Positions 35,021 through 47,488 of a stretch of DNA of 63,403 bases are shown here, one piece after another. The position numbers and the translations under genes were made by a program. The stretch is from Euryarchaeota archaeon UBA439 (lineage in GTDB: Archaea > Thermoplasmatota > Poseidoniia > Poseidoniales > Thalassarchaeaceae). The stretch is taken from NCBI GenBank assembly GCA_002497245.1, contig DANB01000016.1:1-63403 (forward strand). The letters run 5' to 3'. Under the pieces are notes generated by a model. The model was given only the letters and a program-made list of their open reading frames with translations. It was not told where the DNA came from and did not search any database. Numbering within the stretch: the stretch's first letter is position 1; every line of letters begins with the position of its first letter.

Positions 35021-36228
35021 TATTCCACGCTCCTGGTAAGATTTACAATTTTTTCCGCGCCTTCAGCAAGAGTGCTTGCTGTATGTACATCTAAATCGCA
35101 ATTATCTAAAACCTCTTTTCCTTCTACATGATTAGTACCTGAAAATCTTACAACTAGAGGCACCTTTAATCCAAGTTCATTTGAAGCCTCAATTACACTT
35201 CTAGCAACCATATCGCATTGAATAATCCCTCCAAAAATATTCACTAAAATTCCCTCAACATTATCGTCTTCAAGTATAATTCCGAATGCAGTGGTAATTG
35301 ATTCTCTAGTTGCTCCTCCTCCTATATCAAGAAAATTTGCTGGTTCTCCACCGTATAATTTAATCACATCCATAGATGCCATAGCAAGTCCTGCACCATT
35401 CACTAGACAACCAATATTTCCATCAAGTTTGACGTAAGAAAGTCCGTGATCATGAGCTCTGGTTTCTACTTCTTCTTCTTCTGAATGATCTCTCATTTCT
35501 TCCCTCCATGGGTGTCTAAATGATGCATTATCATCAAAACTAACCTTTGCATCCAAAGCAATCATTTCTCCAGAATCAGACCTAACTAGAGGATTAATCT
35601 CTATCATTGAACAGTCCTTCTCAACAAACATTCTCGATAAAGAATCTAACATTGAAACTAAATCTTGTTTTGAATTCCCTTCCAGATTGAGGTTATCTGC
35701 CATCTCTAGAGCATCTTTCTCATTTAGTCCATCCACTGGATGTGCCCAAATCTTATGAATTGCCTCCGGTGTTTTTTCTGCAACTTCTTCAATATCCATT
35801 CCCCCCTCAGTAGAGGCCATTATTAGAATTGATTTTTTTTCTCTATCGACTAATAGGGCCAAATAATATTCGTGCTCAATTGAGCAACCTGCTTCTATAT
35901 ACAAATTATTTACTATTTTTCCATTTACACCAGTTTGCTTAGTAACCAGTTTTCTTCCAATAATATTTTTTGCATATTCCTCTACATCTTCTCTAGAAAA
36001 AGCAATTTTTACGCCCCCTTCCATTACTAACTCATTGGTTTCTATGTCATAAAGAGTCCCTTTACCTCTACCTCCTGCATGAATTTGCGATTTTACGGCC
36101 ACAACTTTTGAACCCAATAAATCATATGCATTAAGAGCATCATTTACTGTTTTACAGTGTATCCCGTTTTGTACTTTAACTCCCGCTTCTTTAAACAGAA
36201 TCTTTCCTTGATACTCGTGAATATTCAT
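35020..36228 (-). CDS. sucC: Succinyl-CoA synthetase beta subunit
   Basis: [21 protein letters not shown], and [14 protein letters not shown]. Its stop abuts the sucD start. Confidence 0.95.
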
Positions 36229-36332
36229 ATTTCTCAAGCGTCCGATTTGAAGTCGCTCTTTGAACGATGCGCCTAACGATGTTCAAATCTTAAGCACGAA
36301 GTGCTGAAATCTATTGCCATATCCGGTGAACT

Positions 36333-37295
36333 GTGGATGTAGTTGTTCTCGCTGGTGGTTTCGGCACAAGACTTAGACCTTGGACTGAAGGAAGAGCTAA
36401 ACCTTTACTACCTATTTTGGATAAAACTCTCCTAGAGAGGGTAGTAGAATGTGTTCCAGTTGACATGGTTGATAGAGTAATAATTGCTGCAGGATATAGT
36501 GTCGAAGAAATGCATAATTTCTTTTCTTCTTCCGATCTTCCTTTCGAAGTGATAATCTCGGTCGAAGACGAACCCTTAGGGACTGGTGGTGCAATTTCTA
36601 AGACATTTGAGTACCTTACGGGAGATGGTCCGGTTTTGATTTTAAATGGAGATCTTGTTTCAAGTGTAGATGTTAATGATTTATTGACTCATCATAGAAA
36701 GATGAATGCTCTGGCTACTCTATCGCTCTGGCATGTTGAAGATCCTAGTAGGTTTGGAGTATGTGGTTTGGACGATTCAGGAATGATTACTAAGTTTCAA
36801 GAGAAACCTGAAATAGGTACTGAGTTTTCTAATCTTATAAATGCTGGATGTTACTTAATTGAAAGAGAAGTAATCGCTTCTCTATCTTCAGAGAGACATA
36901 GTATTGAGAGAGACGTATTTCCAGAGATTGCAAAAACAGGAAAAATGGCAGGCTTAGAGTTCAAAGGTTACTTTGTCGACGCAGGGACGCCATCCTCATT
37001 TATCGAAGCAACACAAGTTTGCATTTCAAATAAGAGATTCGCAGATGGTTGGTCTGACGGTGAAAATTGGTTCTTTAATCGAAATATCAACACCTTATCT
37101 CAGATTTCTGGTTCATCTATCTCTCGTGAAGTCTCAATAGGTAACGGTTGTAAGATTATAGATTGTGTAATTTTATCTGGCGCCATCATTGGAGATGATT
37201 GTAAATTAACTAGGTGCTTGATAGGTGAATCCTCTAGGATAAATGATAACTCGGATATTTCCGATAAGGTCGTAGGTCATGGAGAAATTATCTAA
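36333..37295 (+). CDS. Sugar-1-phosphate nucleotidyltransferase with left-handed beta-helix C-terminus
   Basis: VVLAGGFGTRLRPWT and EPLGTGGA. Hexapeptide-like repeats at the C-terminus. GTG start. Confidence 0.8.
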   Translation: MDVVVLAGGFGTRLRPWTEGRAKPLLPILDKTLLERVVECVPVDMVDRVIIAAGYSVEEMHNFFSSSDLPFEVIISVEDEPLGTGGAISKTFEYLTGDGPVLILNGDLVSSVDVNDLLTHHRKMNALATLSLWHVEDPSRFGVCGLDDSGMITKFQEKPEIGTEFSNLINAGCYLIEREVIASLSSERHSIERDVFPEIAKTGKMAGLEFKGYFVDAGTPSSFIEATQVCISNKRFADGWSDGENWFFNRNINTLSQISGSSISREVSIGNGCKIIDCVILSGAIIGDDCKLTRCLIGESSRINDNSDISDKVVGHGEII

Positions 37296-44893: not shown

Positions 44894-47227
44894 ATGAGCA
44901 TGAGTGGCAGAAAGTCAAGTAAGACATTTGTGTCATTATCGATTATTTCATTGATTTTTATATCTCTAATTAGTATCTCCTCGGCGCAAATCATAGCTCC
45001 ACAAGGTCCAGGGATTGAATGGGAAAAACCAGAAAGCCATCGGCTGTTTCTAAAAGGTGAGGCCACATCTCCTTATCTCGATAACAATTGGAGCTCTTTG
45101 ACTGGTCAACCTATTGGTTCAATCGACTTCCAGAAAACTGTCGGTTCAACAAACTTGATCGACATTCAATCAGCTCCAATCATGGAAGATTTAGAGTTTA
45201 ATGGCAACATTACAGTTCACATTTTTGCATCTCTAGATGTTGCAAATGATGGATGTAAGTTTACAAATGTCCTTCCCGGTTCTCCTTTGGGTTCAGAAAC
45301 AAGGTTCTCTGTTTCACTCACATTGGGAAATAATCAAATTCTTTTAGATGCTCAAACTAATTCTATAGTAATGGAGGAATCCTTTACCTTGGCTCATGAA
45401 TTTTTAGTTGATGCTAACAATATCAATGTAAGTCTTAAGCAGGGCGATCTAATTGGATTACGAATTGATGTAATACACGATTGTGCACAGACAGGAGTTT
45501 TATGGTGGGATACTTATGATGCGACTACAGGAATAGAATTTAAAGGTGAACTAATTTATCCTGAATTAGATCAGACAGTTGACCCCAATGGGATAATCAG
45601 AGTAGAATTTACACCAAATTCACCTTGGGGAAATGATCTTTATCTTTCTCAAGTTTTAGAGGTTATTGGACCTGTTGAATGGCAAGACATGATTCATGGC
45701 AATGCAGATGAAAATACCAGATTAGATCATTTTGAATCCCCTCATGGAATTAGAGTAGATGAATTTAATCGTACGGTTTTAACTTGGTCCTCACAAAATC
45801 GCCTTTCTTCAGGAAAGTATATGGTCGATAGTTGTTACAAATTATCAGATCAAGACCCTGGAGAAACCTGTGACCTTATCGGAGTTCTTAGGTTTGAAGT
45901 CTTAGAACCAGAACCATCTCTATTAAATGGAACTTGGGCAGCTATTTTGATTCCTCTTAGTATCATTTTTTGGATTGGCATCTCTATGAAAGAGGCACTA
46001 CTACCTTTACCGGCATATGGAGTTATTTTGTTACTAGCATTAACAACTCTGGGCCCAGCAATGAATTTACCAGATATTGATTTCGAAGAACCGAGATTTG
46101 AGGGGGCATCTCCCTCGTTCTCATTATATGAGCATGGCGAGAATCAACAGTTAGTAGAGTTTAGTGATTTATTATCAGATTATGATGCAATAGTTATTGG
46201 ACTATTTACTCCAAGTTCTCCAAATGCTGAGATTCAAAGAGTTGATTTCGAAATAGCTCAGAAGGTAATTGATGATGATGTTGCGTTTCTCCAAATTGCA
46301 ACTGGAGAAGGTGTCAATAGTTTAGATTTAGATAAATTAGTAAATGAGATTAATGGGAGTTGGCCAGTTCTTATTGACAATCCAGATTCATCTGTTGGAA
46401 AATCGTTCCCTAGCAGAGCTTCAGACTCAGTTTTTGTGATTGATTCAGCAGGATTCATATCCTCTTGGAAGCCTGGAACTATGTCTTCACAATCAATAGA
46501 AGATTCAGTAGAATCGTCCTATCTTGGTTCAGGAAATCTACCTTTAGATTTGCTAGGTCTGATTATTGGAACTACTTTTCTTCCTCTTGTGGTCTTAGCG
46601 ATGCCTAGAGGCGGGAAATACGAAGTTCCCGATTCCCCCCTTATACCTGGAGCAGGATTAGCGCTTACATTATATTCTTCGAGTGTAGGTTTTGCTTTGT
46701 GGGCATTACCTGTATCGATCTTGTCAATATTAGGATTAGGTTCGTTTTGGATTTATATTGAACTTATAATAAGTTTGATGCTTATTTATCATGGTCTTTC
46801 TATGTTATTTAGAGGTGGCATTAAAGAAATAGAAATTATTGGAGGACTATTTTATTCTAGATTACCTGAACCGTATCAATTATGGTGGAAAGAAAATAAA
46901 TTCTTAGATGATATGTATTTAGGTCTCTGGGTTGCATGGTTATTATGGCTTAGAGCACCAAATACAATACCGCAAGCCATCGGCGCAGTTGCAAGGTCTG
47001 GATTAATTGGAATATTTATCTGTATGATATTTTTCTTAGGTTACATGTTTATGGCTGGTTTAGTAGTAGTAATTTTCAGAACTAGTTTAGCTATAGTTGG
47101 AGATTTCACACGAATTTTGGGTTCACTAAGTGTCGGACTAAGGCCACGTGCATGGGGATTAACTTGTGCCATCCTTGGAGTATGGGTTTTATTCAGCATA
47201 GTTGCTGGGCCTTTGATGATAATGTAA
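44894..47227 (+). CDS. Large surface/membrane protein: signal peptide, ectodomain, TM segments, Cys-less thioredoxin-like module, polytopic C-terminus
   Basis: N-terminal signal (SLISISSAQ) and multiple hydrophobic helices from residue ~345 onward. Confidence 0.65.
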   Translation: MSMSGRKSSKTFVSLSIISLIFISLISISSAQIIAPQGPGIEWEKPESHRLFLKGEATSPYLDNNWSSLTGQPIGSIDFQKTVGSTNLIDIQSAPIMEDLEFNGNITVHIFASLDVANDGCKFTNVLPGSPLGSETRFSVSLTLGNNQILLDAQTNSIVMEESFTLAHEFLVDANNINVSLKQGDLIGLRIDVIHDCAQTGVLWWDTYDATTGIEFKGELIYPELDQTVDPNGIIRVEFTPNSPWGNDLYLSQVLEVIGPVEWQDMIHGNADENTRLDHFESPHGIRVDEFNRTVLTWSSQNRLSSGKYMVDSCYKLSDQDPGETCDLIGVLRFEVLEPEPSLLNGTWAAILIPLSIIFWIGISMKEALLPLPAYGVILLLALTTLGPAMNLPDIDFEEPRFEGASPSFSLYEHGENQQLVEFSDLLSDYDAIVIGLFTPSSPNAEIQRVDFEIAQKVIDDDVAFLQIATGEGVNSLDLDKLVNEINGSWPVLIDNPDSSVGKSFPSRASDSVFVIDSAGFISSWKPGTMSSQSIEDSVESSYLGSGNLPLDLLGLIIGTTFLPLVVLAMPRGGKYEVPDSPLIPGAGLALTLYSSSVGFALWALPVSILSILGLGSFWIYIELIISLMLIYHGLSMLFRGGIKEIEIIGGLFYSRLPEPYQLWWKENKFLDDMYLGLWVAWLLWLRAPNTIPQAIGAVARSGLIGIFICMIFFLGYMFMAGLVVVIFRTSLAIVGDFTRILGSLSVGLRPRAWGLTCAILGVWVLFSIVAGPLMIM

Positions 47228-47299
47228 AATAAATTTTTATTTTTGAAGACATCACACCGAGAGCATCATAAGAGTGTAGTCTTTCGTAGTGTTACCCTT

Positions 47300-47488
47300 G
47301 GGGGTATAGTATAACTTGGTAGTACAGCGGGCTCCAGTTGCACGGGAATGACGACGAATAAGTGATCTGATGGTATTGATGACCAACTGGAGCACCGACC
47401 CGTCGCAACCCGAGAGCGTGCAATTGCCAAGTGCACGCTAGGCGGAAGATACCCGCTGATCTGGGTTCAAATCCCAGTGCCCCCACCA
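47300..47488 (+). tRNA. tRNA-Trp (anticodon CCA) with ~113-nt intron (about 47338-47450), CCA encoded
   Basis: Exon 1 is GGGGGTA..GCGGG-CTCCAG. Exon 2 is A-CCCGC-TGAT-CTGGG-TTCAAAT-CCCAG-TGCCCCC-A-CCA. Acceptor, anticodon and T stems all pair. Intron placed at the canonical 37/38 position. Confidence 0.85.
47342..47403 (+). ncRNA. Box C/D sRNA embedded in the tRNA-Trp intron
   Basis: Terminal stem ACGGG (47342-46) / CCCGT (47399-403). Box C ATGACGA 47348-54, D' CTGA 47367-70, C' TGATGA 47377-82, D variant CCGA 47395-98. Both spacers are exactly 12 nt. The D-guide (47384-93) pairs 10/10 with 47331-40. Confidence 0.7.

Follow-up and report, generated by a model that had tools for sequence, protein, structure and literature searches.

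A probable box C/D guide for C34, with a decayed D' arm, in the tRNA-Trp intron of a Marine Group II archaeon

That the intron of an archaeal tRNA-Trp can carry a methylation guide has been known since 2001 and is textbook material; for Haloferax volcanii, the intron guide was reportedly worked out by Clouet d'Orval in 2001, Bortolin in 2003, Singh in 2004 and Joardar in 2008. Guides of this kind also occur in Archaeoglobus, the Methanomicrobiales, the Methanosarcinales, the Thermococcales (Pyrococcus sR50) and the Thermoplasmatales, and in the published examples a D guide of the form xxxxCUGGAGxx addresses C34 while a D' guide addresses position 39 (PMC2584109 supplement 4). According to PMC7994747 and PMC11408192, the Haloferax intron guides formation of Cm34 and Um39 and does so in trans, either as precursor or as excised intron. 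The latter also cites Joardar 2008 for the finding that Haloferax needs neither the intron nor its methylations for growth, and the presence of such a sequence is therefore no proof of its use. A literature search for Marine Group II in conjunction with a tRNA intron, fibrillarin or sRNA returned nothing on this lineage in the papers covered. Here, we describe the tRNA-Trp intron of Euryarchaeota archaeon UBA439, a marine archaeon of Marine Group II (Poseidoniales; assembly of 1.39 Mb, 37.6% G+C, 82% complete), located in a window of 63,403 nucleotides, by which we mean the whole stretch of contig DANB01000016.1 that was analysed. With a probability of roughly 0.88, we consider it to be a box C/D guide of the euryarchaeal pre-tRNA-Trp intron family that comprises those of Haloferax, Pyrococcus (sR50) and Rfam sR3, one that would be directed at C34 by its D guide and whose D' guide has decayed.

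The bounds of the intron are well defined (Table 1). With introns allowed, ARAGORN starts the intron at gene position 39 and gives it a length of 113 nt, and the Rfam tRNA model, in a local E-value search, yields 47.3 bits with an insertion of 117 nt within the anticodon loop. Because the intron is long, the gene is missed by ARAGORN in default mode and by Rfam at gathering thresholds. The cut at 47338-47450 is the only one that produces a 7-nt anticodon loop, CUCCAGA; splice registers shifted by one base at both cuts were dismissed on inspection, for they create U37 or break the G31-C39 pair. An intron at about 47338-47450 had been proposed by a sequence-only reading of the window, and the ARAGORN bounds bear this out and leave the box arrangement intact. 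In 80 distinct relatives the cloverleaf pairs are kept at 99-100%, and the relatives' introns are 109-118 nt long and located identically. Upstream of the gene, at 47209-47250, lies a weak match to Rfam snoZ159 (20 bits, E 0.34), which overlaps the end of a 777-aa open reading frame and an A/T-rich stretch; it probably reflects chance or promoter or terminator sequence.

Table 1. Features of the tRNA-Trp gene and its intron, and candidate machinery genes elsewhere in the assembly
Feature	Coordinates	Strand	Basis or remark
tRNA-Trp(CCA) gene	47300-47488	+	ARAGORN intron mode; Rfam tRNA model
5' exon, positions 1-37	47300-47337	+	ARAGORN with introns; Rfam tRNA, 47.3 bits
Acceptor stem GGGGGUA/UGCCCCC			read from sequence
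Anticodon stem GCGGG/CCCGC	47327-47331 / 47452-47456	+	
Anticodon CCA	47334-47336	+	wobble C34 = 47334; G37 = 47337
Intron, 113 nt	47338-47450	+	canonical 37/38 position; ARAGORN i(39,113)
C/D terminal stem ACGGG/CCCGU	47342-47346 / 47399-47403	+	98.3% of cells paired, 80 sequences
Terminal-stem extension	47337-47341 / 47405-47409	+	C47404 bulged; 92.5% paired; zero double changes
Box C AUGACGA	47348-47354	+	C for U at position 5; ATGACGA in 128/131 parsed Poseidoniales introns
D' spacer CGAATAAGTGAT, 12 nt	47355-47366	+	decayed remnant of position-39 guide; no credible target
Box D' CUGA	47367-47370	+	CTGA 127/131, CAGA 4/131 Poseidoniales introns
Loop between D' and C', 6 nt	47371-47376	+	
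Box C' UGAUGA	47377-47382	+	
D spacer CCAACUGGAGCA, 12 nt	47383-47394	+	47384-47393 pairs with 47331-47340
Box D CCGA	47395-47398	+	C for U at position 2
3' hairpin AGCGTGCA / TGCACGCT	47415-47422 / 47432-47439 (47415-47439)	+	all 8 pairs changed on both sides, 80 sequences
3' strand of bulge-helix-bulge (BHB)	47442-47450	+	predicted splice motif
Outer splice helix (U.G, G-C, C-G)	GCG 47442-47444 with UGC 47339-47341		90.8% paired; U.G/U-A and G-C/G.U changes
Central splice helix	C32-G47448, U33-A47447, C34.A47446, C35-G47445		GAAG at 47445-47448; 3 of 4 pairs invariant
Splice bulges	5': A36 G37 / U; 3': A47449 U47450 / A38		two 3-nt bulges
3' exon, A38 to A73	from 47451	+	A38 = 47451, C39 = 47452; ARAGORN, Rfam
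Encoded CCA end	47486-47488	+	
Fibrillarin	contig C27, one of 35156-35809 / 35913-36401		149.6 bits, above Pfam cut-off; adjoins Nop5
Nop5	contig C27		104.5 bits, above Pfam cut-off; adjoins fibrillarin
L7Ae			41.2 bits, above Pfam cut-off
Fibrillarin/Nop5/L7Ae Pfam loci, as listed	C27:35156-35809, C27:35913-36401, C11:43571-43837		
EndA splicing endonuclease domain			49.1 bits; 344-aa frame

The intron is widespread among the relatives of UBA439. By BLAST, the intron-bearing gene was detected in 57 of 61 genomes (UBA439 and 60 relatives), and an exact-pattern scan of species-representative genomes, for which the intron's conserved 5' part served as the query, recovered at least 119 records; among the matches listed (L039-L118), nearly all are named as Poseidoniales, Poseidoniaceae, Thalassarchaeaceae, Thalassarchaeum or Marine Group II. 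At the threshold used, nine Poseidoniales genomes that look complete (G020, G024, G032, G036, G038, G050, G053, G055 and G060) matched only the 5' exon of the pre-tRNA (query 1-37/38), which may reflect either a very different intron or a different gene organisation. We parsed 131 Poseidoniales introns and aligned their 80 distinct sequences. Over the structure as a whole, 93.3% of cells in this alignment are paired, compared with 40-50% when the partners are slid against each other.

The window contains a single instance of the complete box arrangement, and 100 shuffles yielded none. The four boxes, the terminal stem and the two exact 12-nt spacers are all present as the sequence-only reading had described them, and the order C, D', C', D, with spacers of about 12 nt and a terminal stem, is conserved in the 131 parsed relatives. 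Boxes C and D of the window each deviate from the consensus by one base. In the pairing model of the k-turn, these boxes form tandem G.A pairs, a G6-C1 pair and a 3b.3n pair. With AUGACGA and CCGA, the G6-C1 pair is preserved along with the GA/GA dinucleotides, and the model would set the two bases that deviate, the fifth of box C and the second of box D, opposite each other, as C.C in the window and as C.U in its sisters. Among the Poseidoniales introns, box D reads CCGA in 107 and CTGA in 24 of 131; CTGA is found in all 22 other sequences of the window's own genus-level clade, and the sole difference between the window and its nearest relatives, L010 and L156 (99.5% identity over pre-tRNA-Trp), is C versus T at position 2 of box D. 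Haloferax and other haloarchaeal introns join a box D CCGA to a box C that reads GGACGA or UGACGA and so carries the same C for U, and the Pyrococcus intron combines UGAGGA with CCGA (PMC2584109 supplement 4). The suggestion that CCGA distinguishes this intron from those of Haloferax and Pyrococcus accordingly has to be given up, since both carry it, as does the majority of Poseidoniales. More distant relatives differ here: L170-L189, a sample of 20 tRNA-Trp genes that represents other Thermoplasmatota families, all possess a C/D module inside an intron of 65-163 nt, and in this module box C is UGAUUx, box D is mostly AUGA and the D' guides are intact and of the C39 type. The pair UGAUUx/AUGA may represent a compensatory change of the neighbouring G6-C1 pair to U-A.

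How might the module recognise its target? The D guide forms 10 of 10 Watson-Crick pairs with G31 to G37 and the first three intron bases, U1, U2 and G3, and in this register C47334, that is, C34, lies opposite G47390, which is fifth in the count upstream from box D (N+5). Among the 32 tRNAs of the genome and the rRNAs of the genus, this duplex is the top match, and it is equalled by only 1.3% of shuffled guides. It is paired in 99.1% of cells across the 80 distinct sequences, and such changes as the D spacer has undergone are either compensatory or confined to the end that is not paired. In five distinct sequences, at three or more separate places in the alignment, G37:C has been replaced by A37:U through a double change; the two exceptions among introns with A37, L063 and L132, have broken C' and D boxes as well. 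We regard this covariation of guide and target at position 37 as the strongest evidence here for use of the pairing. Three of the ten pairs, none of which is ever broken, involve bases of the intron, and the substrate would therefore have to be the unspliced precursor. Complete pairing, conservation across more than 130 relatives and the compensatory changes thus support the earlier proposal that the D guide selects C34 of the pre-tRNA in which it resides as the base to be methylated; its expectation that relatives keep both the boxes and the C34 guide agrees with what we find in those examined.

The proteins needed for such a ribonucleoprotein are encoded in the assembly (Table 1). A loose regular-expression scan of the assembly, which is 82% complete, revealed no other clean dual-box C/D RNA; its remaining output was repetitive coding DNA on contig C19 and one weak match at C8:1619-1667. 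Outside the window, a second tRNA intron has box-like motifs: the elongator tRNA-Met(CAU) gene at C27:11857-12008 (- strand) contains a 76-nt intron with UGAUGG, AUGAUU and a 3' CUGA, and with short antisense to the anticodon loop (CAUGAG, and UUGAGU two bases upstream of CUGA). With a pairing of only about 5 bp and C34 at N+6, it did not convince us as a guide.

Conceivably, the C/D module is a non-functional relic in an intron that is kept only as something to be spliced, with both guides unused. We deem this exceedingly unlikely, even though the methylations are dispensable in Haloferax (PMC11408192), the D' guide has already decayed, and two introns, L063 and L132, have a broken C' box (TGAT-A / TGAT-TT), a box D reading CCTA and an A37.C mismatch in the guide, such that a few lineages seem to be losing the module as a whole. 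A relic would not be expected to have kept its four boxes, its C34 guide and a D spacing of 12 nt in nearly every one of some 130 genomes while the flanking intron and the D' spacer diverge, nor to show a guide and a target that have changed together. The fibrillarin-Nop5 pair and L7Ae, moreover, have been kept in a genome in which the scan found no other clean dual-box C/D RNA.

In the nt-39 register, the D' spacer of the window offers only three contiguous pairs, one of them a G.U wobble. Exactly half of the distinct sequences (40/80) have a 12-nt D' spacer with at least 7 contiguous pairs and C39 at N+5, whereas the other half show eroded pairing or spacers of 10-11 nt; all sequences of the window's clade fall into the latter group. 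The commonest D' spacers among Poseidoniales are CGAGUGGGUUUG, CGAGUGGGUAUG and CGAGUGGGUAAU, which pair with A38 to C43 or U44 and have C39 opposite their fifth base. Relatives with spacers of the form CGAGUGGGUxxx achieve 7-10 bp with A38-U44, again with C39 at N+5, and spacers of the CGAGUGGGU type likewise represent the relatives' C39-guide type. In its ancestral state, then, the D' arm would have directed ribose methylation to C39; in the genus of the window it has decayed and most likely guides nothing any more. Judged from the alignment, the loss in this genus is secondary, since 40 of 80 distinct relatives still have the position-39 guide. The sequence-only reading had found no complement for this spacer in the tRNA and had concluded that C39 is not targeted, which is correct, but it had also treated the spacer as a guide with an unknown target, a role that the relatives argue against by exposing it as a decayed C39 guide.

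Might the D' spacer CGAAUAAGUGAU instead have been retargeted in trans to a new substrate such as 23S rRNA, making the intron RNA dual-purpose in this genus? Both boxes of this arm, D' and C', are undamaged and their spacing is still 12 nt, and an identical spacer is present in 17 of the 131 parsed introns; L042, a record of the genus-level clade named Ca. Thalassarchaeum sp., is among the sequences that share it. We looked for targets in the genome's own sequence, in all its tRNAs and, because the 82% complete assembly lacks both 16S and 23S rRNA, in the 16S and 23S rRNAs of the genus. In the genome itself, the only exact complement of the spacer stems from the guide, and matches with one or two mismatches are as frequent as for a reversed control pattern. 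The best candidate overall is 23S rRNA at about 1952-1963 of genus relatives (GUCGCUUAAUUG), with 8 contiguous pairs including two G.U, yet 76% of shuffled spacers equal or beat it against the same set of genus rRNAs and genome tRNAs. Spacer variants within the genus (CGAAAUUGUGAU, CGAAUUAGUGAU and an 11-nt form) worsen the match, although in G008, the only variant genome with a 23S sequence at hand, the site itself is unchanged; in other words, the variants fail to track the site, and we rejected it as being at chance level. In addition, the D' spacer varies within the genus, unlike the D spacer with its restricted changes. The proposed target search therefore produced nothing above the level of shuffled spacers, retargeting seems highly improbable, and there is only a slim chance of a new D' substrate, which would lie outside what the incomplete assembly shows. 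In a weaker form of this improbable idea, repeated independent erosion of the C39 guide in Marine Group II might track a relaxed need for methylation of the anticodon stem in cold-water mesophiles. We favour decay of a C39 guide.

The intron must also be removed, and its predicted splice motif overlaps the region contacted by the D guide. The C.A mismatch that had been noticed by eye in the central helix of this motif is indeed there, and it is conserved in 79 of 80 distinct sequences. We considered an alternative central helix that employs G47444, and discarded it: this base is A in Poseidoniaceae and thus not conserved. In the 20 tRNA-Trp genes from other Thermoplasmatota families, the central helix is often mismatched at C34 or U33, the strands opposite CUCC being, for example, GAAG, GUGG, GCGG or GGUG and only in a few cases the perfect GGAG. 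Mismatches being so common across the sample, they are a trait of the phylum rather than a peculiarity of the window.

The intron bases 47338-47341 can pair alternatively with the D guide, with GCAAC at 47405-47409 in the extended C/D stem, or with GCG at 47442-47444 in the outer splice helix, and the alignment suggests that these mutual exclusions are conserved. In rough in silico evaluations that leave proteins aside, the guide-duplex and extended-stem folds each come to about -52 kcal/mol and the splice-competent fold to -44 kcal/mol, so that the latter is about 9 kcal/mol less stable than its two alternatives; these named conformers were evaluated since the unconstrained minimum free energy fold was not a cloverleaf and uninformative. 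A more specific switch had been put forward by the sequence-only reading, in which the pairing of 47338-47344 (TTGCACG) with 47417-47423 (CGTGCAA), as opposed to the hairpin 47415-47422/47432-47439, selects the guide or the splice fold. Both complementarities exist as described, about 76% of the cells across relatives would permit the alternative pairing, and competing folds are known for this family of intron guides. We nevertheless hold the switch to be very unlikely, because its 5' partner never varies and the pairing hence shows no covariation, and because shuffling gives an equal percentage of pairing in 500 of 500 trials. Compensatory changes in the arms of the hairpin keep the hairpin and break the alternative, for example in L032, L096, L123, L141 and L148, and more distant Poseidoniales have hairpins of unrelated sequence. 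The covariation thus points to the 3' hairpin as a real conserved element of the intron in its own right, and the exclusions that are conserved are those among guide duplex, extended stem and outer splice helix, all of which use 47338-47341.

From the gene, the boxes, the complementarity and its conservation, the compensatory changes and the protein genes, we infer a pathway of RNP assembly and C34 methylation that could proceed as follows. L7Ae would bind the C/D k-turn, formed by AUGACGA with CCGA, and the C'/D' motif, after which Nop5 and fibrillarin would assemble on both motifs. The D spacer would then pair with G31-G37 and the first three intron bases of unspliced pre-tRNA-Trp, allowing fibrillarin to 2'-O-methylate C34, which faces the spacer nucleotide at N+5 of box D. 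By analogy to Haloferax, the guide probably resides in a second precursor or in an excised intron and acts in trans. Given that no two of the BHB fold, the guide duplex and the extended C/D stem can form together, the RNA would have to refold before EndA could cut at 47337/47338 and 47450/47451. The D' arm, with its boxes retained and its ancestral C39 guide decayed in the genus, would be a bystander to these events.

What does this intron add to the family? It extends the tRNA-Trp guides to Marine Group II, which is among the most abundant planktonic archaea. It also provides a comparative series that leads from introns with both guides intact, via partly eroded ones, to those with an orphan D' guide and finally to a few with broken boxes, and relatives with and without the C39 guide amount to a natural experiment on the purpose of Nm39. 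Its end with both guides is represented by sister introns such as L033, L038, L041 and L048, which share the gene, the boxes and the C34 guide (72-93% identity over the entire pre-tRNA) but whose D' spacers (CGAGUGGGUAUG, CGUGUGGGUUUG and similar) form 8-9 bp with the 3' junction and place C39 at N+5. Other Thermoplasmatota have UGAUUx and AUGA where Poseidoniales have AUGACGA and CCGA or CUGA.

The Rfam family sR3 (RF01133) matches 47344-47400 end to end (model 1-55), with 23 bits and E 7e-4 in a search of 401 nt, a score that lies below the gathering cut-off of 41 bits. Poseidoniales introns with intact D' guides reach 26.7-29.2 bits, and the cut-off is passed by the tRNA-Trp introns of two other Thermoplasmatota, from two families of which one is in the window's class (47.6 and 43.4 bits). 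The sR3 consensus, ...UGAUGA-nt39 guide-CUGA...UGAUGA-xxxxUGGAGCx-CUGA, is that of the tRNA-Trp guide in the published alignment, and the window shares with it the core of the D guide, CUGGAGC. By its apparent descent and its layout, the window is a divergent member of this family that has secondarily lost the nt-39 guide.

With Haloferax volcanii, the window shares an intron at the canonical position of tRNA-Trp(CCA), the order C, nt-39 guide, D', C', C34 guide, D, a C34 at N+5 of box D within a target that spans the exon-intron junction, a GACGA box C with a CCGA box D, and the hBHBh' layout with bulges A36 G37 + N and N N + A38. The Pyrococcus intron, too, has its boxes and guides in this order. 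The window differs from Haloferax in that its D' guide is unmatched to position 39, which is C here and U there, and in that its extra hairpin is located 3' of the C/D core rather than between D' and C'. Its spacers are strictly 12 nt long, whereas the D' spacers of haloarchaea are longer, and its central splice helix contains the C34.A mismatch in place of the four Watson-Crick pairs of Haloferax. Neither the mismatch nor the CCGA box D is peculiar to the window. Mechanistically, there is nothing new in this intron: it is an ordinary member of the family of tRNA-Trp guides, down to its CCGA box D.
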